This document shows, piece after piece, positions 19,134 to 37,590 of a DNA stretch of 64,000 nt. This DNA is from an uncultured Actinomycetes bacterium (GTDB taxonomy: Bacteria > Actinomycetota > CADDZG01 > JAHWKV01), in the NCBI GenBank assembly GCA_964501265.1, contig CAZCSK010000001.1, positions 86,314 through 150,313 of the forward strand. The letters are read 5' to 3'. The notes under the pieces are model-generated. The model was not told the DNA's origin. It was given only the letters and a program-made list of their open reading frames with translations, and ran no database searches. The position numbers and the translations under genes are program-made. Positions within the stretch are counted from its first letter, which is position 1, and the number at the start of each line of letters is the position of its first letter.

Positions 19134-21878
19134 ATGCTGCGTAGAGTCCTAGTTTCAATTGCCTTGCTTGGCTCTCTCCTCGTCAGGGCACCAATTCCTG
19201 CATTGGGCGGACCTAGTTCGTTTGTCTTTCAGGGGGGAGGCTTCGGGCACGGAATTGGAATGAGCCAGTACGGCGCGCTCGGGATGGCCCGCGCCGGTTT
19301 CCCGTACGACCAGATCCTTAAGCACTACTACACCGGGGTGACGGTGGGCTCACGAGCATTGCCCCCCACTATCAGAGTGGGCCTCCGGCAAACCGACGGC
19401 GGCTTTCGCCTTTCGGGAAACGGGCTCTTCACCTTCTCCACATCGATCGACGGAGCAGCAATGTCCACCGGCAACACAGACGAGTGGTGGGACATCCGCC
19501 GCGAGGGATCGTCGGTCTTTCTTCTCGCCCCGCCGGCCCGCGTCCAACAGGGAGAACCTGCCGAGCGGGGACCTTTCGCCCAGATATGGCAGCGACCGGC
19601 ATCGGGCGTTCTACTGAAGTTCGTCGAATTTGTAAGTCCATCCTGGAAGGTAACCGGCGAGTACGCACACGGGCGCATACAAGTGAAGGCAAGCGCTGCG
19701 GCGACCACCACGCACGTGGTTCTCGATGCGATCTCGCTCGAAGAGTACGTCTATGGAGTTGCGGAGGTTCCTTCATCTTGGCCAGCGGAAGCAAAGAAGG
19801 CGCAGGCGGTCGCGGCTCGCACCTACGCGGGCAAGAAGGCGGAGGAACAACAAAACCGAAGCAGTTGTTCGTGCGCGGTCGTCGACGACACCCGTGACCA
19901 AGTGTACGCAGGATGGATCAAGGAAACCCCCGCGTGGACGAGCGCGGTTGATGCCACTGCTTCAGTAGTGGTCACGTACGCCGGGGTGATGGTTTCTACG
20001 TTTTACTCCTCTTCGTCCGGCGGATACACCGAGGACAACGAAAAGGTTTGGGGAGGCAGCGCCATCCCGTACCTGCGCGCTGTCTCGGACCTGTACGACA
20101 ATCAGCCGGAAAACTCCCGCTGGCGATGGACGATTTCGGTTTCAGCAGAAGAGTTGAGCAATCGGATCAACAGTTACTTGACCTCTATTGGCCGGCCCCA
20201 GGTGGGAATCGTTCAAGACCTTCTTTATCCGGCGCCGCGCGGGCACGCTGGCCGCATCATCGTGATCAGTGGTAGCGGTGGGGGCGTGACAGTCATCGGA
20301 TCAAGCGCAACCGCGCGGCTTTCAGGCGACCAGTTCAGGTCTGCAGCGAAGTTGCCCAGCTCACTCATCTTCCCATCGATAAACGAACCCACTCGCGACG
20401 TTTCGGGTGGGTACGTGGCAGACGCACGCGGGGGCCTTCATCCTTTCGGCGGAGCGGGGCCGGCAGTGGGTGGCGCCTACTTGAGCCAACCTATAGTGCG
20501 AGACGCGATCTACAGGACTGACGGACGGGGAGGCTATGTTCTCGACGGACGCGGAGGTCTTGCAAGGATCAATGGTGCGCCCGAAATTGGCTCGGCTCCC
20601 GCGTTTGGCATCGACATAGCGCGATCCATGGCCATCACCCCCGACGGATCCGGTGGTTACGTTGTCGACGGATACGGCGGCATCCATAGTTTGGGAAGCG
20701 CGCCGCCCCTTACTGGGAGCCCGTACTGGCAGGGATGGGACATTGCCCGCGCAATTGCTCTTTCTCCCGACGGACTTGGCGGCTATATGTTGGATGGTTT
20801 TGGCGGGCTTCATCCTCTCGGCAACGCCGCGCCAGCGGTTGATCTGCCGTACTTCGGATTTGACATCGCCCGGGATCTGATCATGAGGAGGGACGGAAGC
20901 GGCGGTTATGTGCTCGACGGTTTTGGAGGGATCCACCCGTTCAACGGCGCTCCCGCAATTTCGTCTTCCGGGTATCACGCCGGCGTCGACTCGGCAGCGG
21001 CTCTAGTTCTTCGCAACAAAGGCGTCGGTGGTTATGTGCTCGAACGCTCCGGCGCCCTCGTGGCGGTTGGGGGAGCGCCGGGAGTGTCAACGACTGGCTA
21101 CTTCGACTCGGGCGCTGCCCGGGGAGTCCTCCTTCCTCCCGACCCCGAGGGGTACATCCTTTCGAGCGAGGGCCCAGTGAGCGCGTTCGGTCTGGCGCCG
21201 GCCCTTGTCGGCGCGCCTAATTTTGGCATGGACATCGCGCGCGACCTCGCCCTTCGTCCAAACAGAACCGGATTCGTGCTCGACGGATATGGAGGATTGC
21301 ATCCTGTAGGGGTCGGGGCCCCCGCAGCGATCGGTGGCTCGTATTTCTCCGGACAGGATCGAGTTCGTCGGATCGCGCTGACAACCGACGGAAGTTACGG
21401 ATACGCGATGGATGCCGACGGAAGCCTGTACCCATTCGACGGCGCACCCGCGGTAACGGAGACTTCAACCTGGTGGCCGGATGGCTTCGATGTGGCGCGC
21501 GACTTCGTGCTTCGTCCATCGGGAGGCGGCTACCTCATAGACCGGGGAGGACTGGTTCACGAATTCGGTGGAGCGCCAGCAGTTTCAAGCTCGTGGTACG
21601 TAGGAGGAGAAGATCGCGCTCGAGCCCTTGCCCTCTTGGCCGACGGACAGTCGGGGTATGTCCTTGAAGTAAACGGCGTCCTGCATCAATTCGGTAGCGC
21701 GCCACCACTCGAATCTGGAGTGGTCATCGCCGACGCTCGCGACCTGATTCTGCGTCCGGACGGCCGTTCGGGCTGGATCGTCGGTGTTTCGTTAATCCAT
21801 CCTTTCGGTGGAGCGCCTCCAGTCTCGGGTGGATTGCCTTCCGACAAAGCAGCTCGGGCCGGCGTGGGAACCTCCTAG
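19134..21878 (+). CDS. SpoIID/LytB-domain cell-wall protein with C-terminal array (~12x) of 'LDGxGGxHP…DIAR' repeats
   Basis: Signal peptide; the SpoIID/LytB hallmark GGGFGHGIGMSQYGALGMA…YDQILKHYYTG. Residues ~413-914 are ~42-aa repeats, e.g. GGYVLDGFGGIHPFNGAPAI…, GFVLDGYGGLHPVGVGAPAAIGGSYFSGQDRVRRIAL. Confidence 0.8.
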   Translation: MLRRVLVSIALLGSLLVRAPIPALGGPSSFVFQGGGFGHGIGMSQYGALGMARAGFPYDQILKHYYTGVTVGSRALPPTIRVGLRQTDGGFRLSGNGLFTFSTSIDGAAMSTGNTDEWWDIRREGSSVFLLAPPARVQQGEPAERGPFAQIWQRPASGVLLKFVEFVSPSWKVTGEYAHGRIQVKASAAATTTHVVLDAISLEEYVYGVAEVPSSWPAEAKKAQAVAARTYAGKKAEEQQNRSSCSCAVVDDTRDQVYAGWIKETPAWTSAVDATASVVVTYAGVMVSTFYSSSSGGYTEDNEKVWGGSAIPYLRAVSDLYDNQPENSRWRWTISVSAEELSNRINSYLTSIGRPQVGIVQDLLYPAPRGHAGRIIVISGSGGGVTVIGSSATARLSGDQFRSAAKLPSSLIFPSINEPTRDVSGGYVADARGGLHPFGGAGPAVGGAYLSQPIVRDAIYRTDGRGGYVLDGRGGLARINGAPEIGSAPAFGIDIARSMAITPDGSGGYVVDGYGGIHSLGSAPPLTGSPYWQGWDIARAIALSPDGLGGYMLDGFGGLHPLGNAAPAVDLPYFGFDIARDLIMRRDGSGGYVLDGFGGIHPFNGAPAISSSGYHAGVDSAAALVLRNKGVGGYVLERSGALVAVGGAPGVSTTGYFDSGAARGVLLPPDPEGYILSSEGPVSAFGLAPALVGAPNFGMDIARDLALRPNRTGFVLDGYGGLHPVGVGAPAAIGGSYFSGQDRVRRIALTTDGSYGYAMDADGSLYPFDGAPAVTETSTWWPDGFDVARDFVLRPSGGGYLIDRGGLVHEFGGAPAVSSSWYVGGEDRARALALLADGQSGYVLEVNGVLHQFGSAPPLESGVVIADARDLILRPDGRSGWIVGVSLIHPFGGAPPVSGGLPSDKAARAGVGTS

Positions 21879-24186
21879 CGGGACCAACTTGAGAAACGCA
21901 ATTCGCAACTTCTTGTCCACACGGGGCTGGGAAACTGGGGGGGCGCTTGCATTCGCCTTGTTCGTTGCCTGGCCCCTTTTCCATCCTGGTCGGCTGGTAA
22001 CGGGTTTTGACACACTCACTTATTCGGTCCCCAATCACGCCGTTTCCATCGCGGCTCTGCGGGCGGGCCGTCTCCCGGCGTGGAACCCCTACATCTTTGG
22101 CGGGGCCCCTCACCTGGCTAACCCGCAGGTCGGGATCTTTTATCCACTCAAGTGGGCCTCGATCTTCGTCTCGCCTCATCGAGGACTTGTTCTACTGACC
22201 GGTCTGCATCTTCTCATTCTGGCACTCGGGATGGTCGTGCTCGTCGGAGGCGCTCTCAAGTTGCGACGGCCAGCCGCGTTGATTGCCGCAGTGATCGCTA
22301 CTGGCTCGGGAGTGGCTATGGCTCAGTCACTGCATTTCGAGCAGATCCTCACAATCGCTTGGGCCCCTTGGTTGCTGGCGGCGGTGGACGCCGCAGCTGC
22401 AGGAACGATCCGAATCCGCCGGGGAGTTGCGGCCGTAGCCTTAACTTGCGGACTCATGATTCTGGCCGGACACCAGCAACCCGCTTACGTGGTGCTCGTG
22501 CTGGCAGTTGCTTGGGCTTTGGCGCGGTGCATCGAGGTCAAATCAGTTACTCGTTTCCTCGGAGTGCTGGGCGGATTGCTGCTCGGGTTGGGCCTGGCTG
22601 CCGTTCAGCTTGTACCGACACTCGACCTTGTTAGTCGCTCGGTACGCGAGGGCGGACTCGCAATCAAAGGGCTCAGCGCCCCAGGCTACCTGCTCAATCT
22701 ACGCGACCTGCCGGCCGTACTCCTGGGCAACTCAGTTGCGCGTTCGATCATTAATGCTACCGGCGGCGTCGAAGCTAGCGCCTACATTGGCGCTGCAGGG
22801 TTTGTTCTCGTTCTCGTCGGTCTGATCGTGAGCATCAAGGTCGGGCGGCGAGTCTTGATCCTCACCCTCGCGGCGTCGGTGTTGGTCGCCACCATTTTGG
22901 CAGCAGGACCGGTCACGCCCTTCTTTCGCGCCGCCCACGCGGTCATTCCCGGCTTCTCGCTGTTTCGCGTTCCCGCACGCTGGGTGCTTGCGACAGACCT
23001 CGCACTCGCCGTCCTGGCCGGTTTCGGCGTTGACGCAATCGTGCAGAGGCATGTGCGGAGACGTGACGTCGTCGTCGTGCTGGCGGTCGGGGTGGTGATC
23101 GCGGTGCTCATCGGTGTGCGGGCTCTGCATCGCCCCTCGGGACCCGCAGTTATTGTTTGGCTGATCGCCGGAGGCACAATACTTGCGGGGGCTGCGATGG
23201 CGGGTCGCTTAGGCCGTCGACGGTTTGGGTTGGCGGTTCTCATACTTCTTCCCGTCCTCGAGCTTGGTGGCGCTGCGTCCCAGTCAACGCTTCCGAAACT
23301 CGCTCTCGACCTGCCGTTGCGCATTTATCCTCAGGCTGGAGATTCCGTGAAATTTCTTCAGGGGCATCCCGGGCGGACGCTTCCACTTGGGGGGGATCCC
23401 CAGGGCGCCCCCTTTTATAGCGCCGCTACATTGCGCCCCAACCTCAACGCGACGTACGGCGTCCGATCTCTCGATGGATACGATGGCGGCCCCCAAGTTT
23501 CGCGCCGTTGGGTACGCGCAATGGAGAGCCTGACCAAGCAGCCCTTTAACCCCGACCTCACTCTCAAGGCTCAGATGCCAGTCCCACTCGATGCCGAGAT
23601 GCTGGCCCGTTTCGGTGTGCGCTGGGCCCTTCTCGACACTGACATCAACCCCCCAAGTGTCGTCGTCCCAGGTTGGGGAGAGTCCGTTGCCCGTGAAGGA
23701 AACATTGGGGTGTGGGAAAACCCGCGGTACCAGGGGGAAGGATTTCTTTACGCGGCGACGAAGCCCCTAGGGAATCGCCCCGGTGAATCCCTCCGTGCTC
23801 TTGGGCTTGAAAGCAACTCGATCGCGCTTGTCGAGTCAGACGGCCCAGTCCTTGCCTGCTCCCTCGAGTGTGCAAGGTCTCCCGTCCCGGTAGGTCGTCC
23901 CCGGCCCGAGCGGATGACTGTCAATACCCAATCCGTTTCCCCCTCACTTCTGGTTGTGGCAGAACAGTGGGATCCGGGCTGGCGCGCCGAAGTGGACGGC
24001 AAGAAAGCGGTGGCGATACCGGTAGACGGATTCATGCTCGGGGTTTCGCTGCCCCCAGGCCATCACCGAATCAGACTCACATATCACGTCCCCGGCCTCG
24101 CGATTGGAACATCCCTGACGCTGCTTAGCTTGGCAATCACAACATTGCTGACGGTGAAGAGGCGCGCCGTTAACGCGTCGTTATGA
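21808..24186 (+). CDS. Large polytopic membrane protein, YfhO/GT-C-like (putative extracytoplasmic glycosyltransferase)
   Basis: ~13 predicted TM helices and an N-terminal region resembling YfhO-family proteins (…PAWNPYIFGGAPHLANPQVGIFYPL…), plus a large C-terminal extracytoplasmic domain. The true start may be TTG 21889, because the ORF-track start overlaps SpoIID by 70 nt. Confidence 0.55.
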   Translation: MERLQSRVDCLPTKQLGPAWEPPSGTNLRNAIRNFLSTRGWETGGALAFALFVAWPLFHPGRLVTGFDTLTYSVPNHAVSIAALRAGRLPAWNPYIFGGAPHLANPQVGIFYPLKWASIFVSPHRGLVLLTGLHLLILALGMVVLVGGALKLRRPAALIAAVIATGSGVAMAQSLHFEQILTIAWAPWLLAAVDAAAAGTIRIRRGVAAVALTCGLMILAGHQQPAYVVLVLAVAWALARCIEVKSVTRFLGVLGGLLLGLGLAAVQLVPTLDLVSRSVREGGLAIKGLSAPGYLLNLRDLPAVLLGNSVARSIINATGGVEASAYIGAAGFVLVLVGLIVSIKVGRRVLILTLAASVLVATILAAGPVTPFFRAAHAVIPGFSLFRVPARWVLATDLALAVLAGFGVDAIVQRHVRRRDVVVVLAVGVVIAVLIGVRALHRPSGPAVIVWLIAGGTILAGAAMAGRLGRRRFGLAVLILLPVLELGGAASQSTLPKLALDLPLRIYPQAGDSVKFLQGHPGRTLPLGGDPQGAPFYSAATLRPNLNATYGVRSLDGYDGGPQVSRRWVRAMESLTKQPFNPDLTLKAQMPVPLDAEMLARFGVRWALLDTDINPPSVVVPGWGESVAREGNIGVWENPRYQGEGFLYAATKPLGNRPGESLRALGLESNSIALVESDGPVLACSLECARSPVPVGRPRPERMTVNTQSVSPSLLVVAEQWDPGWRAEVDGKKAVAIPVDGFMLGVSLPPGHHRIRLTYHVPGLAIGTSLTLLSLAITTLLTVKRRAVNASL

Positions 24187-26059
24187 CCGCCCGGGCAACA
24201 TCCAGGCCCACCCATGTGCTTGATTGCGGCAGTCCAGGGGCATTACCGAACGTCCAGATCCTCCCGATGGAATCAAGCACCCAACCTCCTCCTCCGTCTG
24301 AGGTAAGAGCCAGTCCGCGCGCAGTGTCTTGGCCGGGTGCGTAGTAATTCGGAGACATCGATGGGGCTCCACCAAAGGAGTGAAGTCCACCCCAGCCGTC
24401 GAGCACGTACCCACTAATGCCATCTGGGCGCAAAGCGATCGCTCTTGCAATATCAAATCCGAAATAGGGAACGCCCAGTACCTTGGAAGCGACCCCCAGC
24501 GGGTGGACCCCGCCAAAGCCATCTAGGACGTAGCCGGCCGTGCCTGATGCATTCACAGCAATTCCCCGGGCGATATCCCACCCCCAATAAGGGCCACCAC
24601 GAGGAAGGGCGGCGCCACCGAATGGGTGAACACCTCCGTAGGCGTCAAGAACGTAGCCTGTCCCATTCGCCGGACCTTTAGCGGCCCCTCGCACTATGTC
24701 CCACCCGGCCCAATAGGAGTTCCCGGAGATCGGCAACGCGTCGCCATAAGGATGTAACCCGCCATATCCGTCAACGACATACCCGCCGCTGCTCGACCCG
24801 ATTGCGGCGCGCGCAATCGGCCACTTTGCCCAGTAGGAAGAGTGAGTCACCGCCGCTTGGCGCCCGGCGGGGTGCAGCCCTCCGTAACCGTCAAGCGTCA
24901 AGAGGCCCGGCCCGCTCGCTGCGGGGGTCCAACCGGGCAACGGGTGTGGCGGCGTGGAAAACACTTCCGACTGCACGTCGATACGCAGCTGGGGGATTAA
25001 GGGATAAGCGCGATCCCCTGGGCAGGCGGTTGCCGACACGTCTCGATGCCCACTGATCACGTCGAGCGTCACGTTCGTACCCGCTGGATAGCGCGTTGAC
25101 CCGCCGCTCACCGCCTGAATCTGAGCGCGTGAGTCGACTGTGTGATGGGTGAGTTTCCAGGCAAGTAGAGAACGCAACGCGGAACGAGAGGCGACCGGAA
25201 CCGGCACTGGCCCGTGCTCGCCAATCAAAGCGACACCTGTACTGCCGGTGTTGAACCCCCCGGAGTGCGCACCGATTACAGGTTTGGTCGTGCCTCCGAA
25301 CCGGCCCTCGTACACTCGGCCGAACCGATCGATAAGAAAGTTGTAACCGATGTCGCACCACCCGTTGCCAAGAACGTGGTAACGGTAGATGGCGCGCACA
25401 ATCGCCGGGGCCTCTTCTGCTGTGTAAGTGTTGGCGTTGACCGTGTGATGAACGAACGAATTCCTTAGTGAGCCAGCGTATTCGGGGGTTCCACAACCAG
25501 AGTTGGACGTGCGCAGGCTTTCATCGGCCCCCCATTCGGCGCGCGAGATTATCCCTGGCTGAGCAGGGGTCGCCGTCGCCGGAGAAATAGTGAACGGGCG
25601 AGGCTGCGAAACCTCCGAATGAATTAGATGCATCTTCAGCTGCGCGAGCGATCCCTCGGTGACTCGCACGTCCAGCGCGTCGACTCCACGCCCGATCCAG
25701 GTTGGGCCCGCCGATGTGGTGGCGCGATTCTCCATCGAACTCGGGTCCGGGCCTTCGTCGGGGTTGCCGTAAAGCTCGGTCCAGGGGGACCACCCGTCTC
25801 CTCTTCTAAGACGAATCTCCACTGCGCCCTCCACGTGGCCTTGCCACTCGAACCCAACGACTTCCGCCGGCTTGCTTAGCGACAGGAAACGGCGGTATCC
25901 GGGAGATGCTTCTTGAAGTGAACCGGACGCCAGGTCAACGATCCGGCTTTCCACGCGGGGCGGCCTCTGCTGCGGCGCGACCAAACCAGCCGATACCAAC
26001 GACAAAGCCACTACCAGCGGAGGCAGCCTTAAGGACCATCGATTCATGTGTGAAGACAC
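24170..26059 (-). CDS. N-acetylmuramoyl-L-alanine amidase (Amidase_2/PGRP domain) with C-terminal 'LDGxGGxHP…DIAR' repeats (~6x)
   Basis: Signal peptide; Amidase_2 motifs …FVHHTVNANTYTAEEAPAIVRAIYRYHVLGNGWCDIGYNFLIDRFGRVYEGR… The C-terminal ~255 aa are repeats, e.g. GYVLDGFGGVHPLGVASKVLGVPYFGFDIARAIAL. Confidence 0.8.
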   Translation of the reverse strand: MSSHMNRWSLRLPPLVVALSLVSAGLVAPQQRPPRVESRIVDLASGSLQEASPGYRRFLSLSKPAEVVGFEWQGHVEGAVEIRLRRGDGWSPWTELYGNPDEGPDPSSMENRATTSAGPTWIGRGVDALDVRVTEGSLAQLKMHLIHSEVSQPRPFTISPATATPAQPGIISRAEWGADESLRTSNSGCGTPEYAGSLRNSFVHHTVNANTYTAEEAPAIVRAIYRYHVLGNGWCDIGYNFLIDRFGRVYEGRFGGTTKPVIGAHSGGFNTGSTGVALIGEHGPVPVPVASRSALRSLLAWKLTHHTVDSRAQIQAVSGGSTRYPAGTNVTLDVISGHRDVSATACPGDRAYPLIPQLRIDVQSEVFSTPPHPLPGWTPAASGPGLLTLDGYGGLHPAGRQAAVTHSSYWAKWPIARAAIGSSSGGYVVDGYGGLHPYGDALPISGNSYWAGWDIVRGAAKGPANGTGYVLDAYGGVHPFGGAALPRGGPYWGWDIARGIAVNASGTAGYVLDGFGGVHPLGVASKVLGVPYFGFDIARAIALRPDGISGYVLDGWGGLHSFGGAPSMSPNYYAPGQDTARGLALTSDGGGGWVLDSIGRIWTFGNAPGLPQSSTWVGLDVARAVITTR

Positions 26060-26105: not shown

Positions 26106-26684
26106 TTACGGCAGCGGTCGCAGGCCCTTTAGATCGTCTATCTGTTCGTAGCTGCGGCCACACGAACAGGAAAGCTCCGCAGGCAACGTTAGCCCGCACT
26201 CGCATACCCATCCTACCCTGCGAGCGGGATTGCCGACCGTGACAGCGTGCGCAGGAACGGATCTCGTAACCGTTGCCCCTGCCCCTACGAACGCGTGCTC
26301 TCCAATGATCACTCCGCAGACGATGGTCGCATTGGCTCCTATCGTTGCACCGCGCCTCACGAGAGTCGGCGAAAACTCGTCGGGGGACTTCTTGAAGGCC
26401 GCACGCGGGTTGAGGTCGTTCGTGAACACCGCGTGAGGGCCGACGAACACGTCATCCTCTATCGTCACCTTGTCGCAGATCATGATGTAGTTCTTGATCG
26501 TGACACGGTCTCCCACGACGGCTCCGCTTTCGATGAAAGCATGCCCGCAGATGTTGCAGTCCGCTCCGACGTGCGCTCCTTGCATAATCTGGGCAAAAGC
26601 CCAAACTCGCGTCCTTGGACCGACATTTACCGATTCGCACAGGGCTTTGTCGTGCACGAATACGGATGGGTCGGGCAAAGTCAA
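26106..26684 (-). CDS. Left-handed beta-helix (hexapeptide) sugar N-acetyltransferase, WbpD/PglD-like
   Basis: Hexapeptide repeats (…IGANATIVCGVIIGEHAFVGAGATV…) with a C-terminal Cys cluster (CECG…CSCG). Translationally coupled to the upstream DegT gene. Confidence 0.75.
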   Translation of the reverse strand: MTLPDPSVFVHDKALCESVNVGPRTRVWAFAQIMQGAHVGADCNICGHAFIESGAVVGDRVTIKNYIMICDKVTIEDDVFVGPHAVFTNDLNPRAAFKKSPDEFSPTLVRRGATIGANATIVCGVIIGEHAFVGAGATVTRSVPAHAVTVGNPARRVGWVCECGLTLPAELSCSCGRSYEQIDDLKGLRPLP

Positions 26685-29589: not shown

Positions 29590-29616
29590 CTCAACGGACG
29601 GTAGATTAGCGCCGTG
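29590..29616 (+). promoter_or_regulatory. Putative leaderless-type promoter: -10 TAGATT, 6-nt spacer, GTG start codon
   Basis: cggTAGATTagcgccGTG read directly. The same arrangement and flanking sequence recur at 35803-35829. Confidence 0.4.
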
Positions 29617-31239
29617 GAGACAAGCTCCAAGAAGGGGTTCGGGATGTCAGACATCGGCATCAGAATACCGGATGCAGACAGGCACCGGCGCAAGATCGTC
29701 GCCGGGTTCTTCGCGCTACTGCTACTTCTCGGGGTTGCGATCTTCAACGACTTCGGAGTCTCCTGGGACGAGCCGGATTACTATCGCTACGGCCACCTCG
29801 TTCTGGATTTCTTCACCGGTGGGGGTCGGCAGTTCGAGACTTTTCTGAACCTCAGGCTCTACGGACCGGTCGTCCCAGTGGTCCAGGCAATCGTCGCAAA
29901 TGTGTTTGATCTCTCGCCCGGACAAGCCTTTCCCGGGGCTCACCTGGTTAACTACATCATCTTCTTGGCCGGGGCAGTTGCCTTCTACCACCTGTGCCTT
30001 CTGCAATTCGAAAGCTGGAGATGGGCACTTTTGGCTACTGCGATGCTCTTCTTGTCGCCTCGCATCTTCTCGCACGCATTCGTCAATCCAAAAGACGGAC
30101 CCTTTCTTGCCCTGTTTACGATCAACATCTACTTGCTGGTTCTCTTCCTCGAGAAACGCAAACTATTCCTCATTCCTCTGCTTGGCCTAACCACTGCGCT
30201 TCTAATCGATATTCGAGTAGCAGGGTTCCTAATTCCGGCCCTCGTGACGGTTGCGCTCGCGGCCGACGCGCTCACTGCGTCCGGTCGCCGTTTCCTGAAA
30301 TCGCTCTTGCCTCATCTCGGCCTCTACTTACTCGTGGTGGTCCCGACGGCGTTGGCGTTGTGGCCGTTTCTCTGGCCCAACCCGATTGGCCGGTTGGGCG
30401 AGTCGATGAGTTTGATGAGCAACTTCGTAGGGGGCCCCGTCGTCGCCGTTTACATGGGAATGGCACACGAGACGACCAGCCTGCCCTGGCATTACCTGCC
30501 GGTCTGGATTGGGATCACCACGCCCCCTGCTTACCTGGTGCTGGCTTCGGTCGGCCTTGTCTCGGGCTTGTGGCGAAATCCCATCGCGGCCTTTCGGACA
30601 CATTCGAAGGACCGTCATTTCTTCCTGTACGCGGCCTGGCTCCTTGCGGTTCCCTTGGCCATCATTGTCAGCGGAGCAAATCTTTACGACGAGTGGCGTC
30701 AGGTTAATTTCATCTATCCCGCGATGCTGATATTTGCCATCGCCGGTGCGAGATCGATCTACCTGCGTCTTGGCCGACAGAGGAACGTTGGACATCTTTT
30801 GCGCGTCGGGTTTGCGGCGGGCCTGGTAATCGTTATGGCATCCGTGGGGGTTCGCATGATTTCGCTGCACCCCTACGAGGCTCTCTACTTCAACTCACTC
30901 GCAAGGGGAGGAGATCGCGTGGAGAACAATTTCGAACTCGACTACTGGGGCATCTCATACAAGGAAGGACTCTCCTACCTGCTATCGCATTATCCTGGAC
31001 AACTCAAGGTTTATGGCTGCACAGCTCCTGCGGCCCACAACTCAATCTTGTTCGAAGATCGCGCGCGGCTCGAGTTCGTTTCGAAAGAAGATGCCGAATT
31101 CGGGCTGTGCGCCCCTCGGGAGTATTTCCTCGGATATGGGGGGGGCCGGGATGTGTATCTTTCGGAGTATCCGACGCTTTACAGCGTCGAGCGCGACGGA
31201 GCGACGTTCCTCTACGTGAAGGATCTAAGGGGCGCCTGA
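29614..31239 (+). CDS. Polytopic membrane protein, GT-C fold, GT39/ArnT/PMT-like (putative polyprenyl-P-sugar dependent glycosyltransferase)
   Basis: METSSKKGFGMSDIG…; ~11 TM helices and an acidic first extracytoplasmic loop (…VSWDEPDYY…) reminiscent of GT-C DE/DD motifs. Confidence 0.55.
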   Translation: METSSKKGFGMSDIGIRIPDADRHRRKIVAGFFALLLLLGVAIFNDFGVSWDEPDYYRYGHLVLDFFTGGGRQFETFLNLRLYGPVVPVVQAIVANVFDLSPGQAFPGAHLVNYIIFLAGAVAFYHLCLLQFESWRWALLATAMLFLSPRIFSHAFVNPKDGPFLALFTINIYLLVLFLEKRKLFLIPLLGLTTALLIDIRVAGFLIPALVTVALAADALTASGRRFLKSLLPHLGLYLLVVVPTALALWPFLWPNPIGRLGESMSLMSNFVGGPVVAVYMGMAHETTSLPWHYLPVWIGITTPPAYLVLASVGLVSGLWRNPIAAFRTHSKDRHFFLYAAWLLAVPLAIIVSGANLYDEWRQVNFIYPAMLIFAIAGARSIYLRLGRQRNVGHLLRVGFAAGLVIVMASVGVRMISLHPYEALYFNSLARGGDRVENNFELDYWGISYKEGLSYLLSHYPGQLKVYGCTAPAAHNSILFEDRARLEFVSKEDAEFGLCAPREYFLGYGGGRDVYLSEYPTLYSVERDGATFLYVKDLRGA

Positions 31240-31267: not shown

Positions 31268-33316
31268 TCATGTTGAGCGCCCTGTCTCCCGTTTGAATCG
31301 ATGCGCGAACCGCTTAAGGAACCGCTCGTACGGGAGTAGAAGGATGAGGCCCCCGAGGGCCGACAGAACGCGGGCTACCCTAACTTGCCACGGGAGCTCG
31401 TACGTCACCTGGAGAAGATGGCTTCCTGTGGGAACCCGCACGAGCATCTGGTCGAATTCGTCGGGCCGAGTTGCCAGTGGGCGGCCATCAAGAGAGGCCG
31501 TCCAGTACGGCGATTCGATCACCCGAACAAGAATAGTGGCCCGCACCTTTGCATCGATCCGCGCCGCGAACGACTTGGCACCTGAAGAGAGCAAAGTTAC
31601 TTCGGCTGAGTCGATTGCAACGATCCTTCCGGGTTTCGCCGGCAGAAACCGGAAAACGGCCAGGTCGTCGAATCGCGCCTGCTGACTGAACAAGTTAGGG
31701 AGCCGAGACATCACCTGGAACGGTAGACGGTTGCCCTCTGCAACAATCTCGGCCGCGCCCACAGTCTCGAGGTAGCCGGCAAGACGATTCGCCGCTGCAT
31801 CCAACGTCATCACGTCCGCCCAAGAGATCCCAAAGATAGACCTGTGATCGAAGTCGTTGGCAAAGTCTCGTACCGTATCGGCCCCTGGGCCGTACATCAG
31901 ATAGGCCTGCATCGGGCTCGGATGAGTCGACGTTCCTCCGATGAACTCTCGCTCAGCGAAGACACCGGTGAGCCCGAAGATGTGCGTAGCGCCGCTTCCG
32001 TACGTCGAACTCGTGAACACCACACGTCCGGAATGACCCGCAAGATATGCCCATAGATGCCCGACGGCTCCCTCTTTTGGACCTTCCAGTCGCAGAGCAA
32101 ATCTCTCCTCAGGGCCTAGCACCGAATGCTCCGCCACTATCCATCCCAATCCCAGTAACCCAACGAGGATGGGAGACAGAGCGCGCGTCCAGCGCAGACG
32201 AGGCAATGCCTCGATCCACAACACCGACATCACCGCGAACCAGAAGAAGATGTCGTCGAGGACTCGGTAAGGGTCGAAGTACGAGATGCGGAGGGGGCCC
32301 GCGATCAACATCATGAATGCCACCAGGAGAAGGAGCGGACCCGCCGCTTTGAACAAGACGAACCGTGGATCTTTCAAGCGGCCTCGCGCCAGTAGAAATC
32401 CCCCCGCAACCGCTGCGCAAATAAGCCACCAATCCCAGCCCCGGCTGTGTGGTGGATTCAAGAGAGATTGGAGCAGGTTCTTGCCCCACAGAAACGGGAT
32501 GGTCTCCCGGCGCATCAGTAGGAGTCCGGCCCACCAGACTCCGGCGAGAAACACGCCAGCTGCAAGTCCCGTCCATGCGCGAATTACGCCGCCCTTGCGA
32601 TCGCGGTTCAGCCCCCAAGCAGCCGCCGCAGCTACGACGAGGGTCGCTGGAAAGTGATACGGGTGACTCAGGATTAACGCCACTGCCGACGTCGCCAGTG
32701 TCAAGGTCCACAGACCGCGCCTTGCGGTCGCGCCCGAGGCTATCTTGGCGAACGCAACTACAACCACGGGCGCGATCGCCAGAGAAAGCCTCGAGCCGAG
32801 CGTGCCGTACCCGGCCCCGACAACCGTCCCTGACACGCCGAAGGCCATGTAGCCCGCAACAACTCCGGCAAGGGCCGCCACGTGCGGACGGACGTTAAGG
32901 AAAATGAGCGACAGCGTCACGGTAAGAGCCGGAGCGAGATAGACGATAACGACGAGGAGCCAATAGGCTCGCTCGTCATTTAGACCCAAGACCAGTCCGA
33001 GAGCCCCTCCTAGCAACGACGGCCCCGGCGGATAGAACTGAAGGTCGGGGTAGCCGCCGAAGATCTCCTGCACCCAACCAAATGGGTCCCTGCCGTCCAC
33101 GATCATCTGTCGTGCGTTGATCATCCGCGCAAGCCGGTCGGGATGGTCCGAAAGAGCAAAGGCCCCTTCAGACAGCAGCCCCTTCGCGGCTAGAAGCATT
33201 ACAGCCAGCGGCACGAAAACCCAGACGGACGCCCACAGGCGTCGGCGCAGGTGATGGTTCAAGATCTCTTCAGGCCCTGAGCGCTCCTTTGGCCCTCGTC
33301 TTTCACTGCAACGCAC
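31268..33316 (-). CDS. Large polytopic membrane protein with C-terminal extracytoplasmic domain (GT-C-like / polymerase-like), function unknown
   Basis: 682-aa ORF with >10 hydrophobic helices in the N-terminal 400 aa and a soluble C-terminal ~250 aa. Start uncertain; the ORF-track start overlaps the upstream gene by 58 nt. Confidence 0.5.
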   Translation of the reverse strand: MRCSERRGPKERSGPEEILNHHLRRRLWASVWVFVPLAVMLLAAKGLLSEGAFALSDHPDRLARMINARQMIVDGRDPFGWVQEIFGGYPDLQFYPPGPSLLGGALGLVLGLNDERAYWLLVVIVYLAPALTVTLSLIFLNVRPHVAALAGVVAGYMAFGVSGTVVGAGYGTLGSRLSLAIAPVVVVAFAKIASGATARRGLWTLTLATSAVALILSHPYHFPATLVVAAAAAWGLNRDRKGGVIRAWTGLAAGVFLAGVWWAGLLLMRRETIPFLWGKNLLQSLLNPPHSRGWDWWLICAAVAGGFLLARGRLKDPRFVLFKAAGPLLLLVAFMMLIAGPLRISYFDPYRVLDDIFFWFAVMSVLWIEALPRLRWTRALSPILVGLLGLGWIVAEHSVLGPEERFALRLEGPKEGAVGHLWAYLAGHSGRVVFTSSTYGSGATHIFGLTGVFAEREFIGGTSTHPSPMQAYLMYGPGADTVRDFANDFDHRSIFGISWADVMTLDAAANRLAGYLETVGAAEIVAEGNRLPFQVMSRLPNLFSQQARFDDLAVFRFLPAKPGRIVAIDSAEVTLLSSGAKSFAARIDAKVRATILVRVIESPYWTASLDGRPLATRPDEFDQMLVRVPTGSHLLQVTYELPWQVRVARVLSALGGLILLLPYERFLKRFAHRFKRETGRST

Positions 33317-34785
33317 AGGATCGAAGTCCCCACCGGAAGCGACACGAGCGCTATGAGGACGCGCTCCAAACGCGTGAGAACAAGCGCGGCGCGGTCGAGA
33401 AACGGCGATGACTTATCGAGACCGAGCTTGCTGCGTGCATCACCGGGCCGCCGCCTGCTCGCCCATACGAATGGCGTGAGCCAGCTGAATATGTGGCTGA
33501 TAAACAGAACGCGGAACCCGCTCTCGGCAAGTTCTCGACGCAAGCTATTTTTGCTGTAACGGCGGTGATGACCGAGAAGTTCATCGGCCGAGCTCCAAAG
33601 CCATTGATGAGCAGGAACGGTGACTATCAAGCGACCGCCGGGCTCGAGGATGCGACGAGCTTCTCGCAAAACCTCGTCCGGATTTTCGACGTGCTCTATA
33701 ACGTCGAGAAGGCATGCATTTGAGATGAACCCATCGGGAATGGCGACGCGGTGGATGTCGCCGACAAATCCCGACAGCGCGTGCCTGTCGCGCGCACGCT
33801 TGGCAAGTTCGTGCGATCCCTCAACGATAAAAAGGTGCTCTGGGGGCCAACCAAGCATGGCGGTCACTCCACCCGCACCTGCGCCAAGGTCCACGAGCCA
33901 AGAAGATCCTTTGCCCCAACGTCTCAGAGCCCAGGAGACGAAGGCCGCCTTGCTTCGGAACCACCAGTGGCGAGCGTCGGCGTCCATCAGCGCCTCGGCA
34001 TTTGCTGCGTCAAAGATTCCATCCGCTTGGGGGATCGGTGGATTCTGCTTTCGCAACGCCCTCACCCTTAGCGCGATTCTTGGAATAGCCAAGACCATGT
34101 TCATACCGTCTCTAAAGACGCGCACACGGGATCTTTCGTCGTGACGCCAGGAGATGGCGATCTCTTCTACACCGATGTCGAGAGCGCGCGCGAGGGCGAC
34201 AATTTCTACATCCCATGCGAAGCCGACTTCGGTTGAGGCAGGGAGGATCTTTTTCCACGTCTGCGTTGAGGCAGCCTTGGCTCCACACTGAGTGTCGACG
34301 ATCCCGGGCGTCAACACGAGCTGCACGAGACGGTTGTAGGCGCGCCCAAGAAGTTCCCGCATTCGATTCTCATGGCGAAGCAATTCGGAGCCAGCGAGAT
34401 CCCTCGATCCGATGACCAACTCATGACCCCTTTGTGCTGCCTTCAGAATGACTTCGAGGTCGTGGAGCGGCGTGGCCAGGTCGACATCACAAAATCCGGC
34501 GAGATCGGTCCGCGCGCTCAACAACCCGGCAGTGATCGCGGCGCCTTTGCCGTAGTGCCCTGCGCGGATTAGACGGCCCGGTACATGAAGGTTGTTGAGC
34601 AGAAACTTCTCGACGCGCTGCGAGGTTTCATCGGCGCTGCCGTCGTCCACAAAAATTAGCTCACTACCCTCGGGCATCGAGACGATGAATGCGGCGAGTT
34701 CCTCTGCAGACTCTTCGAACCGCTCTTCTTCGTTAAATAGGGGAACCACTAGCGAAACGGTCTTCACAACACGCGAGCCAGTCAT
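33259..34785 (-). CDS. Bifunctional GT2 glycosyltransferase (N-terminal, Dpm1-like) / class I SAM methyltransferase (C-terminal) fusion
   Basis: N-terminus VSLVVPLFNEEERFEES…IFVDDGSADET…; C-terminus …LVDLGAGAGGVTAML… followed by …ILEPGGRLIVTVP…. Confidence 0.7.
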   Translation of the reverse strand: MTGSRVVKTVSLVVPLFNEEERFEESAEELAAFIVSMPEGSELIFVDDGSADETSQRVEKFLLNNLHVPGRLIRAGHYGKGAAITAGLLSARTDLAGFCDVDLATPLHDLEVILKAAQRGHELVIGSRDLAGSELLRHENRMRELLGRAYNRLVQLVLTPGIVDTQCGAKAASTQTWKKILPASTEVGFAWDVEIVALARALDIGVEEIAISWRHDERSRVRVFRDGMNMVLAIPRIALRVRALRKQNPPIPQADGIFDAANAEALMDADARHWWFRSKAAFVSWALRRWGKGSSWLVDLGAGAGGVTAMLGWPPEHLFIVEGSHELAKRARDRHALSGFVGDIHRVAIPDGFISNACLLDVIEHVENPDEVLREARRILEPGGRLIVTVPAHQWLWSSADELLGHHRRYSKNSLRRELAESGFRVLFISHIFSWLTPFVWASRRRPGDARSKLGLDKSSPFLDRAALVLTRLERVLIALVSLPVGTSILCVAVKDEGQRSAQGLKRS

Positions 34786-35723
34786 CGTGACCGTTTCCCC
34801 ATCTCACTTGGATATTTCCCGTTGTTGAACTGAGCAAATCTCTCGCGTAAGGGCTCCCTCAACAGGCGGTCCATCTTTGCCGTTAACGATTCGCGCACCA
34901 TCCGGCGGCGGCACACAAAGAACGAATGCATGACGGGGACCACTCCTTCGAGAGTGAGTCGATCGTCCAGTGCTAGCAGATAAGCAAGAGCCTTGTTCGC
35001 CTCTTCGTCCTGCCTGGCGAACTCTTCTATGTTGTTCCAAAGTATCTGATAGCCGATGCCGCCGCCCAGATCTTTGCGTTCGACAAAGTCGAAGTAGTGC
35101 CCGATGGCGCGAAACAGTTCAGCAGAATGAACTGCCTCAGTTGGCTCCCAGGCCAGCAGGTGGCGAAGAGCGGGGCGAAGCGGGTGAGATGTTCTGAAAC
35201 GCTCGGGCAGCCCGGCATTCGCCTCTTCCATAGCAGCCGCGTGGCGATCGGAGTACTGATTCCGGCTGGGCCCAACATACTCCCAGTTAACAAAGAGCCC
35301 CTCGGGGGTCAAGCAGGTTGAGAGGACGCGAGTGATCCTGTAGAGGTACTGAGCATGGTGCAACGCCGCCACGTTCACTATTAGGTCGTAACTCTTGCGT
35401 GGGGAGAATGACCGAAAGTCCGACTTGAAGTAAGAGATGGGGCGATCCTTCCTAAGCTCTTTCGCCTCCTCTAGATAGGAGGGAGACACATCGAAGGCAT
35501 CGATGTGTGCTGCGATCCCTCGATCGATTAGATCGCGATCCACCCATCCATTCCCGCAGCCGATTACTAGTGCCTGATCGAGTGGCGGTGTTGCGTAACG
35601 CACCTTGAAGTAGTCCATCCACCAGACGTTGGAGTCGCCCGTGGCCTTACGACATAGATGGGCCAACACGCCCGGCAACTCATTCCAATACTTGTCGACA
35701 TAGTGGCTGAGGGCGTCAGCCAT
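34782..35723 (-). CDS. Class I SAM-dependent methyltransferase
   Basis: …ALVIGCGNGWVDRDL…AFDVSPSYLEEA…; ATGA overlap with the upstream gene. Confidence 0.65.
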   Translation of the reverse strand: MADALSHYVDKYWNELPGVLAHLCRKATGDSNVWWMDYFKVRYATPPLDQALVIGCGNGWVDRDLIDRGIAAHIDAFDVSPSYLEEAKELRKDRPISYFKSDFRSFSPRKSYDLIVNVAALHHAQYLYRITRVLSTCLTPEGLFVNWEYVGPSRNQYSDRHAAAMEEANAGLPERFRTSHPLRPALRHLLAWEPTEAVHSAELFRAIGHYFDFVERKDLGGGIGYQILWNNIEEFARQDEEANKALAYLLALDDRLTLEGVVPVMHSFFVCRRRMVRESLTAKMDRLLREPLRERFAQFNNGKYPSEMGKRSR

Positions 35724-35800
35724 CGAGGATTGCCAGAACTGGAACGAATGCCACCACCTTCATCCCTTTGTACACGGCTGCTGTCTCTTCCCGTAGGCCG
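35716..35800 (-). pseudogene. Remnant 5' end of a Dpm1-like GT2 gene (≈20 codons) retained within a duplicated promoter cassette
   Basis: The reverse strand encodes …REETAAVYKGMKVVAFVPVLAILDG*, parallel to the N-terminus (LREEILETA)VYKGLRVLAIVPVLDEQ of the intact GT2 at 28834..29556. The surrounding ~115 nt are ~80-85% identical to 29521-29635. The rest of ORF-track entry 35716..36045 has no GT2 continuity. Confidence 0.4.
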
Positions 35801-35802
35801 GG

Positions 35803-35829
35803 CCCGGTGAGCGGTAGATTGAGACCGTG
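35803..35829 (+). promoter_or_regulatory. Second copy of the TAGATT-N6-GTG leaderless-type promoter
   Basis: gcggTAGATTgagaccGTG. The flanking ~60 nt are conserved with 29560-29616. Confidence 0.4.
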
Positions 35830-37590
35830 GAGACAGCCTCGAAGGACGAGATATCCGCCGCCTCTGTGGCAGACACCGGATCTCGCGAACGCGATAGCGC
35901 GGCGCGCGTCACGCTTGTACTCGTTCTCTTCCTCGCCGTAGCCGTTTACGCAACGTGGCCGCTTTCCCGGTACATGGGTAGCAGGGTACCCCAAAATCTT
36001 TTTGACTCTCTTGAAAACGCGTGGATCTTCGGGTGGAACGCGCACGCCTTTACAACCAACCCCCTCAAGATATTCAACGCGAATATCTTCTATCCAGAAC
36101 CGCTGACCCTAGCCTACGCGGAGAACCTGCTGGGCGTTTCCGTCTTCGTCGCGCCGATCTTCTGGCTGACTAAAAACGCGCTTCTGACCGCCAACATCGC
36201 CTACCTGCTCATGTACGCGGTGGCCGGGCTTGGCGTATACCTCCTTGTGAGGGAACTAGGCGGATCGCGCGTGGGTTCTTTTCTTGCAGGTTTCGCCTTT
36301 TCGGTGGCACCTTACCGGCTCATTCAAATAGCCCATCCACACGTGGTTGCAATTCACCTTGTCCCTTTCATCCTCCTGCTGTTGATCCGGCTTCGGCGTT
36401 CGCGTTCGAGATGGGTTCTAGTGGGGATAGCTCTTCTCGTCGCACTCCAGATGTGGTCTTCCATTACTGGCGGTTTGATCATGCTTATTGCAATCACCGG
36501 CTTCGGGATTTGGGAAGTCATCCGACTCCGGACGAGATCGCTACCGGTGGTTGGACGAGCTGCTGCCTCTGTCATCGTGGGCTTGGTTCTGGCGATCCCT
36601 GTGGCTCTTCCCTACATCGAGGTCCGCAAGCTTCACCCGGAGTTCCAGCACTCACCTGGCGAGATATTTACCTTCTCCGCGCTCCCTTCTTCCTACCTGT
36701 CTCCGGCCGAGGGACGGGGTCCGCTTGTCCGGTCATCGAACGATTGGCTAGACAAGCGATTCCGAGCCCGCGATGGGTTCTGGGAAAAAACGCTTTTCCC
36801 CGGTTACTGGCTGGGGGGTGCATTCCTGCTAACTCTTGCGCTCCTTGGCGTCGCGCTGGTGAGAAGGCGAAAGGCACCCTGGATAGAGCCGGCGGCGCTA
36901 TTCCTGTTCATCGCAACGATTGGGTTCGTGGCTAGCCTCGGCCCTCGCTACGGAGGGCCGAGCGGGATTAGGCTCCCATTTAGCCTGGTGTCAGATCTCA
37001 TTCCCGGGGGTTTCGTGCGCGTGCCGGCCAGATTCGGAACCGTCACTCTCCTCGGAATGTCGATTGCCGCGGGAGTAGTTCTCGGGGGGATCAGATCGCG
37101 TCCCGCCCGCGCGCTCATAGCAGTCTCAGGACTCTTCCTACTTCTCGAGGCCGCGCCATCCCCCTTTCCAATGATCGAGCCCCCTCCTCTTAGTAGGGCG
37201 CTCCAGCAGGTCCCCCGCTCCGGCGCAGTATTGGCGCTTCCCACAACCCAGGTGAACGAGAAGGGTAACGTGGTCGAGGGGAGCATCTTCCAGGATACGC
37301 GCAACCTCTACCTCTCCACCGGCAATTTCGCCCCGATGGTCAACGGATACGGGGCATTCCATCCTCAAACTTACTGGGAGGTCATGTCCGCCGTGCAGGA
37401 CTTCCCGAGCGCCGTCGGCATGCAGAGGTTGCAGGTGGTCGGTGTCAAGACAGTGGTGATTCAGACGGAGAGGATCAAAGGAACTCCCTGGAGTGAAGTG
37501 GTAGAGCGGCTGGAAGCATGGAAGGGAGTGCGCAGAATCGCTTCGGGCGAGCAGATCGTCGTCTTCGACATTTCGATGGCGAGTGACTAA
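35827..37590 (+). CDS. Polytopic membrane protein (putative GT-C-like glycosyltransferase/polymerase); N-terminal 7 aa and 5' region paralogous to gene 29614
   Basis: METASKDE…; ~12 TM helices and extracytoplasmic loops. Conserved upstream cassette. Confidence 0.55.
   Translation: METASKDEISAASVADTGSRERDSAARVTLVLVLFLAVAVYATWPLSRYMGSRVPQNLFDSLENAWIFGWNAHAFTTNPLKIFNANIFYPEPLTLAYAENLLGVSVFVAPIFWLTKNALLTANIAYLLMYAVAGLGVYLLVRELGGSRVGSFLAGFAFSVAPYRLIQIAHPHVVAIHLVPFILLLLIRLRRSRSRWVLVGIALLVALQMWSSITGGLIMLIAITGFGIWEVIRLRTRSLPVVGRAAASVIVGLVLAIPVALPYIEVRKLHPEFQHSPGEIFTFSALPSSYLSPAEGRGPLVRSSNDWLDKRFRARDGFWEKTLFPGYWLGGAFLLTLALLGVALVRRRKAPWIEPAALFLFIATIGFVASLGPRYGGPSGIRLPFSLVSDLIPGGFVRVPARFGTVTLLGMSIAAGVVLGGIRSRPARALIAVSGLFLLLEAAPSPFPMIEPPPLSRALQQVPRSGAVLALPTTQVNEKGNVVEGSIFQDTRNLYLSTGNFAPMVNGYGAFHPQTYWEVMSAVQDFPSAVGMQRLQVVGVKTVVIQTERIKGTPWSEVVERLEAWKGVRRIASGEQIVVFDISMASD

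Follow-up and report, generated by a model that had tools for sequence, protein, structure and literature searches.

What are three glycosyltransferase family 2 (GT2) proteins and four large polytopic membrane proteins doing side by side in one gene cluster? The locus that raises this question lies on contig CAZCSK010000001.1, in a 64 kb stretch of DNA that was analysed as a whole (hereafter the window). The GT2 proteins are encoded at 11001-11729(+), 28834-29556(-) (240 amino acids) and 33259-34785(-) (508 amino acids, fused to a methyltransferase) and are named here GT2 11001, GT2 28834 and the fusion. The membrane proteins are A (21808-24186(+), 792 amino acids), B (29614-31239(+), 541 amino acids), C (31268-33316(-), 682 amino acids) and D (35827-37590(+), 587 amino acids). 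An earlier reading of the letters and open reading frames (ORFs), the sequence-only reading, had proposed that the former load sugars onto a lipid carrier and that the latter use them outside the membrane, and all seven ORFs were found where it had placed them. Our answer, to which we give a probability of about 70%, is that a cluster of approximately 45 kb makes a peptidoglycan-linked wall polysaccharide by the ATP-binding cassette (ABC) transporter route and that these seven proteins form several multi-component transmembrane glycosylation modules within it; the polysaccharide probably contains rhamnose. Such systems have three parts: a GT-A enzyme to synthesise a C55-P-sugar, a flippase to export this lipid, and a GT-C enzyme that, outside the membrane, hands the sugar on to a wall polymer (PMC8035078).

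Four membrane proteins of the GT-C superfamily

Proteins A-D are all members of the GT-C superfamily of glycosyltransferases. Direct sequence comparison did not suffice to assign the fold: single-sequence searches of A-D against the PDB gave nothing meaningful and the family profiles of D and B matched no PDB chain. AlphaFold2 models built on the family alignments reached a pLDDT of 92.3 and a pTM of 0.92 for C and of 94.3 and 0.93, respectively, for D. Both contain roughly a dozen long helices before the soluble domain, the membrane-spanning subset of which was not determined, and the membrane module shows the three-dimensional fold of GT-C enzymes. Known GT-C structures headed the matches of both models. 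That of D scored highest with Pmt4 (21.0), followed by AftD (19.9), AglB and STT3B (both 19.1), Pmt2 (18.8), AftA (17.5), ArnT and PglB (both 16.5), and Foldseek retrieved 18 GT-C chains at a probability of 1.00 with C; AftD and AftA were among the strongest structural matches of both. Profile alignments with hhalign tie the remaining proteins to these two: the C family aligned with the D family (98.5%, E 3e-15, 474 columns) and with the B family (95.4%, E 1.8e-8, 311 columns), the B family with the D family (94.9%, E 4e-8, 167 columns), and A with the D family (99.0%, E 7e-18, 280 columns) and the C family (98.0%, E 1.6e-13, 218 columns).

Each protein also has an acidic residue at the position expected of a GT-C enzyme. 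D52 of B, in the first-loop motif WDEPD, and D60 of D are invariant (50 sequences each, with K160 and D161 also invariant in B), D57 of C is conserved in at least 90% of 36 sequences and invariant in the seven closest, and the candidate catalytic residue of A, D68, was located by the hhalign alignment only, one column out of register. The aspartate follows directly on the first transmembrane (TM) helix and the N-termini are basic, from which, by the positive-inside rule, we infer that it sits in the first outer loop. This loop holds the catalytic DxD-type motif of GT-C enzymes (PMC8035078; PMC12041528).

A crude Kyte-Doolittle scan counted 12 strong TM segments in A, 8 in B (where weaker hydrophobic segments were not scored), 9 in C and 11 in D. 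The ten or more helices expected of each protein are thus present by hydropathy in A and D and plausible in C, given its helix-rich model; for B the count stands at 8 strong segments. The extracytoplasmic domains that had been expected were found in all four: a soluble domain of approximately 270 amino acids in A (about residues 492-764, followed by a C-terminal TM helix), a beta-sandwich in C (about 405-642, followed by a C-terminal helix or TM segment), and shorter soluble domains in B (about 415-541) and D (about 450-587).

The folds had been described as YfhO-, GT39- or ArnT-like, which is correct for the superfamily but not for the individual families. Protein A exceeded the gathering score of Pfam YfhO (PF09586; E 5.7e-14, 51.9 bits against 28.5), although only with its last ~60 residues (profile positions 774-835 of 835, the C-terminal beta domain plus TM helix), and its sole NCBIfam matches were C-terminal ones to PgfM2 and PgfM1 (E 5e-8 and 1e-5), at 24-32 bits against equivalog cut-offs of 1400-1500. 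Protein B, for which an alternative public start lies 10 codons downstream (531 amino acids), matched PMT_2 below the gathering score (E 4e-5, 24.2 bits against 26.1). Many of its 179 relatives, at 30-55% identity, carry PF13231 (PMT_2) or PF02366 (PMT), and B appears by these comparisons to be a family-level relative of PMT_2/GT39-GT83 (ArnT, PMT) rather than a demonstrated member. Protein D gave a weak match to PTPS_related (E 0.007), and its 85 relatives showed scattered matches to DUF6311, DUF6044, PTPS_related, YfhO and PMT_2, all of which we take to be members of the Pfam GT-C clan.

Protein C had no Pfam match even at E<=10 and no NCBIfam match, and its closest homologue (P0002) reached 20.5 bits with YfhO, below the cut-off. 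A word-indexed search returned C itself and one relative; the number of relatives rose to 112 when 1.84 billion representatives were searched exhaustively with phmmer, and 33 of these were at E<=1e-10. Among 36 full-length members, 11 matched PTPS_related weakly and five matched YfhO. The family occurs mostly in Acidimicrobiia-like actinobacteria and in Rokubacteria/Methylomirabilota. On the strength of its model, we are confident that C is a GT-C fold glycosyltransferase of a rare family that has no Pfam model. A scan of genomes with the seven closest sequences did not recover the window's own genome; the matching contigs (L002, L004, L003-L030) were concentrated in metagenome-assembled genomes (MAGs) of Rokubacteria/Methylomirabilota and a few actinobacterial MAGs.

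Three GT2 proteins related to lipid-phosphate sugar synthases

All three GT2 proteins matched Pfam Glycos_transf_2 (E 1e-36 for GT2 11001, 3e-12 for GT2 28834, and residues 11-165 of the fusion), and in sequence searches their closest characterised relatives are lipid-phosphate sugar synthases of the DPMS (dolichol-phosphate mannose synthase), ArnC and GtrB type, in agreement with the Dpm1/GtrB-like character ascribed to them before. The best PDB matches of GT2 11001, whose mechanically called ORF begins at a TTG at 10842 and whose gene we take to start at 11001, were the Pyrococcus furiosus enzyme PfDPMS (5mlz, E 3.9e-23), ArnC (3e-18) and GtrB (1.5e-10). GT2 28834 matched 5mlz (3e-11) and ArnC (6e-6), and the GT2 domain of the fusion matched ArnC (9hwj, 1.2e-12, residues 7-239 on chain residues 7-233 of 322), 5mlz (1.6e-7) and GtrB (1.2e-6). 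The best NCBIfam matches over the three proteins were AglJ, PpgS, Dol-P-hexose transferase, ArnC and PgfS: AglJ (2e-36), with PpgS also among the best, for GT2 11001; AglJ (8e-24) and PpgS (3e-19) for GT2 28834; and PgfS (2e-15) for the fusion. These scores lie far under the equivalog cut-offs, and the three are therefore family-level relatives rather than orthologues of the named enzymes.

GT2 11001 is thus a candidate polyprenyl-phosphate sugar synthase, short and soluble like GT2 28834, as both had been described. The Dpm1-type architecture extends to the DXD motif in GT2 11001 (DAD) and the fusion (DVD) but not in GT2 28834, where 'VVMAGNNKDEP' aligns with 'VVMDADLQHPP' of PfDPMS. The residues AGNNKD are kept in a 66%-identical orthologue from a related genome (L046), and a Cereibacter homologue encoded directly after a GtrA gene has DGNGKD. 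Judged by this conservation, GT2 28834 looks like a functional member of a conserved DXD-less variant subfamily and not like a pseudogene.

A putative synthase fused to a methyltransferase

The third GT2 protein combines, in one ORF, a GT2 domain (residues 1 to ~245) with a class I S-adenosylmethionine (SAM) methyltransferase domain (about 290-430; Pfam about 292-427) and ends in one TM helix (476-494 in the hydropathy scan). The fusion is therefore real, and its description as unusual holds in so far as no full-length relative was found: a metagenome pattern scan gave half-length matches only, and tblastn of 72,556 plasmid-collection records gave no match covering at least 80% of the protein. 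Both searches are of limited sensitivity, and they suggest that the fusion is rare. The pairing itself recurs elsewhere, with the two halves encoded by adjacent genes in Nonomuraea, Sphingobium and plasmid pMOL30 of Cupriavidus metallidurans, and matches to the methyltransferase half run through the C-terminal TM helix (query residues up to about 496-500).

On pMOL30 of strain CH34 (L052, NC_007971.2 171374-175246) a run of four genes encodes a class I SAM methyltransferase (28% identity to the corresponding half, E 3e-14), a GT39 protein, GtrA and a GT2 protein (34%, E 3e-13). This run adjoins metal-efflux genes and appears uncharacterised; the region has been named gtr1 and reported as metal-induced (PMC11647585). 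A glycosyl transferase gene overlaps the gene of the methyltransferase-half homologue in Sphingobium, the homologues in Ralstonia and Sphingomonas lie next to GtrA, and in Rhizobium the order is small EamA protein, methyltransferase, methyltransferase, aminotransferase and GT2. Nonomuraea gerenzanensis (L051, NZ_LT559118.1 1670612-1684207, reverse complement) encodes a 16-TM protein (895 amino acids), a GT2 protein with two TM helices, the methyltransferase, a Polysacc_deac_1 protein and an 8-TM protein (514 amino acids). The two flanking membrane proteins have no Pfam match and aligned to the B and D families at a probability of 2-4% only, and we do not claim them as GT-C enzymes. The Nonomuraea set resembles an Arn-style pathway that would both deacetylate and methylate a sugar on its lipid carrier.

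Halves that are fused here and encoded by neighbouring genes in distant phyla constitute Rosetta-stone evidence that this type of methyltransferase works within lipid-carrier/GT-C modules, and they suggest that the fusion carries an uncharacterised methyltransferase component of such modules. Deformylation by ArnD provides a precedent for tailoring a sugar on undecaprenyl phosphate and is our model for what follows. By this analogy the membrane-anchored methyltransferase might methylate the sugar on polyprenyl phosphate, as a fourth component in a widespread subset of such systems, and C might then install the methylated sugar outside; we regard this more specific proposal as tentative, and more probably wrong than right.

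The surrounding cluster

The wall-glycopolymer cluster spans about 0.6 to 45 kb of the window, and genes of fatty-acid metabolism occupy the part past 45.2 kb. The same region with the same gene calls is present in the public assembly Logan SRR6868923 and on a 228 kb NCBI contig. The top homologues come from Acidimicrobiales, Acidimicrobiia and Actinomycetota MAGs, and on these matches the host is probably Acidimicrobiia-like. Three genes define the type of pathway. Wzm (11739-12527(+), Pfam ABC2_membrane 8e-25) is, together with Wzt (12475-13731(+)), the candidate exporter of a lipid-linked polymer; Wzt joins an ATPase domain (ABC_tran) to a C-terminal carbohydrate-binding domain (Wzt_C, 8e-27), and the NCBIfam matches of the pair include TagH and galactan Wzt. 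The third gene encodes a LytR-CpsA-Psr (LCP) ligase joining glycopolymer to peptidoglycan (40770-42170(-); Pfam LytR_cpsA_psr 1e-43 and LytR_C; NCBIfam LCP domain and TagU), which marks the product as a wall-linked polymer. The combination of Wzm/Wzt with LCP is that of a polymer whose cytoplasmic assembly on a lipid carrier is followed by export and by ligation to peptidoglycan. Assembly, export and ligation of wall polymers in this manner are also covered in PMC8035078.

At one end of the cluster lie the dTDP-rhamnose genes rmlC and rmlB (633-2245), followed by two very large secreted Calx-beta proteins (2317-10739). GT2 11001 opens a plus-strand operon that A closes. Between them, after wzm and wzt, stand a stand-alone SAM methyltransferase directly 3' of wzt (13733-14590(+)), a GT2 protein (14587-15930(+)) and two GT4 proteins (about 15930-17474 and 17471-19093, both +), all assigned by Pfam and together forming the cytoplasmic set for the backbone, and a SpoIID/LytB-like protein (19134-21878(+)). 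A Wzt_C domain with a neighbouring methyltransferase is the customary sign of a chain-end cap, a methyl group for instance, that the exporter recognises, and a methyl-type cap is suggested here as well (PMC11127046; PMC2943079); by this analogy the protein at 13733 is a candidate capping enzyme.

The next genes are an Amidase_2 protein (24170-26059(-)) and, downstream of GT2 28834, a sugar-nucleotide tailoring trio (26106-28810(-)) with Pfam matches throughout: a hexapeptide N-acetyltransferase (26106-26684(-); NCBIfam NeuD/PglB/VioB acetyltransferase), a DegT aminotransferase (26681-27787(-); NCBIfam sugar aminotransferases) and a GFO/IDH/MocA 3-dehydrogenase-like protein (27788-28810(-)), the best NCBIfam match of which is UDP-GlcNAc 3-dehydrogenase (7e-49). 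A second class I SAM methyltransferase (34782-35723(-); Pfam Methyltransf_11 and _25) opens an overlapping operon with the fusion and C, its gene overlapping that of the fusion by 4 nt and the latter overlapping that of C by 58 nt. Protein D is followed by two secreted proteins (37808-38815(+), 335 amino acids, and a CarboxypepD_reg protein at 38931-40757(+)), and two further GT4 proteins and one GT2 protein (Pfam) lie beyond the LCP ligase at the end of the cluster.

Two features of the secreted proteins stood out. The protein at 2317-6393(-) (1358 amino acids) combines a full penicillin-amidase (N-terminal nucleophile hydrolase) domain (E 6.5e-85) with Big_9/cadherin-like and three Calx-beta domains, an unusual neighbour for a wall-polysaccharide cluster. 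A tandem repeat of approximately 42 residues with the core 'GGYVLDGYGGLHP' is common to four proteins: the Calx-beta giant at 6474-10739(-) (C-terminus), the SpoIID/LytB-like protein at 19134-21878(+) (residues ~420-900), the Amidase_2 protein at 24170-26059(-) (~380-629) and the CarboxypepD_reg protein at 38931-40757(+) (~420-608). It occurs in four to at least nine copies, spaced mostly by 40-46 residues, and is covered by no Pfam or NCBIfam family. The repeat may be a wall-polymer-binding module that tethers hydrolases to the polymer of this cluster.

Proposed mechanism and pairings

For all seven proteins the fold, the related families and the cluster context are established; the identity of the donors, the pairings, the acceptor and the roles of the methyltransferases are proposed on that basis. 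The backbone would be assembled on a polyprenyl carrier in the cytoplasm by the GT2 and GT4 enzymes, probably capped by the methyltransferase at 13733, exported by Wzm/Wzt and joined by the LCP enzyme to peptidoglycan. In parallel, on the cytoplasmic side of the membrane, each of the three DPMS/ArnC/GtrB-type GT2 proteins would move a sugar from a nucleotide sugar to polyprenyl phosphate. A flippase encoded outside the window would turn these lipid-linked monosaccharides over, and A-D would attach the flipped sugars to the polymer after its export or assemble side chains on it. It is solely from the neighbourhood of DPMS-type GT2 genes that we infer the use of polyprenyl-(di)phosphate-linked donors by A-D. 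The earlier prediction of lipid-linked donors feeding glycosylation outside the membrane thus finds its support at the level of the superfamily, with the donor-acceptor chemistry still conjectural. Modification of ABC-transporter-made glycans by periplasmic GT-C enzymes is documented (PMC11127046), and several GT-A/GT-C pairs per genome are known, with three in Bacillus subtilis and three in Lactococcus lactis (PMC8035078).

Gene arrangement suggests how the proteins might pair. GT2 28834 and B, which are divergent with a gap of 57-87 bp, would form one pair; on a metagenome contig (L031) a Dpm1-like GT2 gene is directly followed by a B-family gene. Their sugar would be a 3-acetamido sugar made by the adjacent dehydrogenase, aminotransferase and acetyltransferase, by analogy with the chemistry of WbpB/E/D and GnnA/B. 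In the related genome L046 the genes for GT2 28834, the dehydrogenase and the aminotransferase occur in the same order (66-72% identity). The fusion would pair with C on account of their overlapping genes, in the operon that is divergent from D with a gap of 103 bp. GT2 11001 could pair with D, with A, or with both: L046 has a homologue of D (51% identity) with a homologue of GT2 11001 (44%) immediately behind it, and in the window GT2 11001 and A share an operon.

Observations that weigh against this mechanism

Several observations count against the mechanism as we propose it. No GtrA, Wzx or small EamA-type flippase was seen among the scanned ORFs of the window, nor was a priming phosphoglycosyl transferase found in it. 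The hydropathy scan showed no TM helix in GT2 11001 or GT2 28834, and no small membrane partner gene in the role of GacJ was seen for either. GT2 28834 lacks the canonical DXD, with AGN in the place of the DAD of PfDPMS. With four GT-C enzymes to three synthases, at least one donor would have to be shared or made elsewhere. The surroundings of close C homologues in other genomes showed no GT2 gene within 10 kb and no methyltransferase or GT-C partner, so that the pairing of C is drawn from the window locus alone; at the two closest actinobacterial loci the neighbours are haem (hemB, hemL-like) or pantothenate (panC, panD) genes, and no glycan cluster surrounds them. Two of these arrangements have parallels, in that the L. 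lactis pairs have in common one flippase whose locus tag is distant, and GacI, itself soluble, works with a separate membrane partner (PMC8035078). Two membrane proteins were considered as flippases and rejected, one of 154 amino acids (45204-45668), which is DUF2007, and one of 520 amino acids (49206-50768), which is DUF4153.

Alternative explanations

Two alternatives concern what the GT-C enzymes act on, and both are unlikely in our estimate. According to the first, some or all of them O-glycosylate secreted or membrane proteins on Ser/Thr/Pro-rich linkers, in the manner of streptococcal GtrB/PgtC2 and PgfS/PgfM1 or of actinobacterial Ppm1/Pmt. YfhO-type GT-C enzymes do glycosylate Ser/Thr-rich disordered regions (PMC12041528), the only NCBIfam matches of A are PgfM2 and PgfM1 and the best of the fusion is PgfS, PMT and PMT_2 domains occur in the family of B, and the cluster encodes several large secreted proteins. 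The protein after D (37808-38815(+)), which has an N-terminal TM anchor, a P/S/T-rich linker of ~50 residues (38-89) and no family match, is a plausible target. It is also the one obvious S/T/P-rich target nearby; the genes lie within a polysaccharide cluster of the Wzm/Wzt-LCP type, the NCBIfam matches fall far under the equivalog cut-offs (31 bits against 1500) and B has no orthologue-level PMT match (PMT_2 at 24 bits, under the cut-off).

The second, to which we accord the same low likelihood, keeps the wall polymer as acceptor and has the GT-C enzymes polymerise a substantial extracytoplasmic domain of it from lipid-monophosphate donors, in the way that mycobacteria extend exported galactan with arabinan through their Aft and Emb enzymes. 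The host is probably an actinobacterium, judged from the best homologues, there are four GT-C enzymes for three donors, AftD and AftA rank high with C and D, and the layout of Wzm/Wzt, LCP and multiple GT-C enzymes fits the logic of arabinogalactan (PMC11127046; PMC13018209). On the other hand, no phosphoribosyl pyrophosphate (PRPP) or DprE-type genes for a pentofuranose donor were seen among the scanned ORFs, the donors appear to be DPMS-type hexose or N-acetylhexosamine carriers, and the fold similarity to Aft enzymes is no greater than that to PMT or oligosaccharyltransferase.

A third alternative, less likely still, concerns the fusion, which, instead of being a lipid-phosphate sugar synthase, would elongate and terminate the growing polymer in the cytoplasm, in the manner of Geobacillus WsaE. 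WsaE joins methyltransferase and glycosyltransferase domains and makes a 2-O-methyl cap to which Wzt is predicted to bind ahead of export (PMC2943079). Methyl caps frequently serve as terminators (PMC11127046), and the Wzt of this cluster has the Wzt_C domain. The ArnC-type GT2 domain of the fusion (best relatives ArnC, DPMS and GtrB, with the ArnC match reaching chain residue 233 of 322), its C-terminal TM anchor and the GtrA neighbourhoods of its relatives make this reading less likely: homologues of the methyltransferase half adjoin GtrA, GT39 and GtrB-like GT2 genes in Proteobacteria and the 2-TM GT2 gene in Nonomuraea. The domain order is unlike that of WsaE, and the stand-alone methyltransferase beside wzt (13733) is the better candidate for a terminator. 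Finally, the sequence-only reading had named one outcome that would refute it, namely that A-D match O-antigen polymerases or ligases (Wzy, WaaL) or non-GT transporter folds. Nothing speaks for this except that they are polytopic proteins in a polysaccharide cluster. It is highly improbable and was rejected on fold evidence, as they gave no Wzy_C or transporter Pfam match, no WaaL or Wzy chain was among the significant fold matches, transporters appeared at Foldseek probabilities below 0.3 only (with C) and ABC-transporter-dependent pathways are not known to use Wzy.

Comparison with known systems

A wall polysaccharide cluster with glycosylation modules most resembles the multi-component systems of Gram-positive bacteria (CsbB/GtcA/YfhO, GacI/J/K/L, L. 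lactis CsdAB/CD/EF with CflA, and B. subtilis YkcC/YkcB and YkoT/YkoS; PMC8035078), in which a GT-A (GT2) lipid-phosphate synthase is likewise paired with a GT-C enzyme, with adjacent genes and several pairs per genome. The flippase is sometimes encoded elsewhere in those systems, their GT-C enzymes are of the YfhO, PMT_2 or 'no domain' type, and soluble GT2 variants (GacI) occur. The window differs in packing all three synthases and all four GT-C enzymes into about 27 kb of one cluster in a non-Firmicute genome, in having a methyltransferase-fused and a DXD-less synthase, in lacking a detected flippase or membrane partner for the soluble GT2 proteins, and in being known from its genes alone.

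Assembly of mycobacterial arabinogalactan and lipoarabinomannan employs Wzm-Wzt export, GT-C enzymes (AftA-D, Emb, PimE and Mpt) that use decaprenyl-phosphate sugars, a PpgS/Rv3779 galactosamine branch and ligation by Lcp1. The window shares with it the ABC exporter, the LCP ligase and multiple GT-C enzymes, as well as AftD and AftA as top structural matches of C and D and PpgS among the best NCBIfam matches of GT2 28834 and GT2 11001. The similarity is not at the level of orthologues (about 10-15% identity in structural alignments), no genes of the decaprenylphosphoryl-arabinose pathway were seen in the window, and its backbone seems rhamnose-based. To the ArnC/ArnD/ArnE-F/ArnT pathway of lipid A aminoarabinose the link is ArnC, to which the fusion's GT2 domain is closest among solved structures; here the acceptor would be a wall polymer or a protein and not lipid A, and the tailoring enzyme is a methyltransferase fused to the synthase.

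The pMOL30 gtr1 run, with homologues of both halves of the fusion plus a GT-C enzyme, matches the component set of second methyltransferase, fusion and C, although its genes are separate, its host is proteobacterial and a flippase is present. WsaE, the methyltransferase/rhamnosyltransferase of the Geobacillus stearothermophilus S-layer glycan, is also a methyltransferase-glycosyltransferase fusion in a Wzm/Wzt-dependent cluster; it is soluble, with an N-terminal methyltransferase and two polymer-acting rhamnosyltransferase domains, whereas the window's protein has an ArnC/DPMS-type GT2 domain and a TM anchor.

Significance

Synthases of the GT2 type that make lipid-linked sugars, together with GT-C transferases, are known to decorate wall polymers, O-antigens and proteins. 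The type of system is thus already well known, and most of the cluster is ordinary, a matter of sound annotation rather than discovery. The novelty is modest and lies in the rare family of C, the DXD-less GT2 subfamily and the methyltransferase component. Protein C, previously without a Pfam or NCBIfam match, is newly assigned to the GT-C fold. A conserved subfamily of DPMS-like GT2 proteins that has no DXD raises a mechanistic question about metal dependence, and the fusion of a methyltransferase to a synthase yields the testable hypothesis that the module methylates a lipid-linked sugar or its acceptor. The presence of four GT-C enzymes in a single Wzm/Wzt-LCP cluster suggests that the elaboration of wall polymers outside the membrane in an arabinogalactan-like manner is not confined to the Mycobacteriales.

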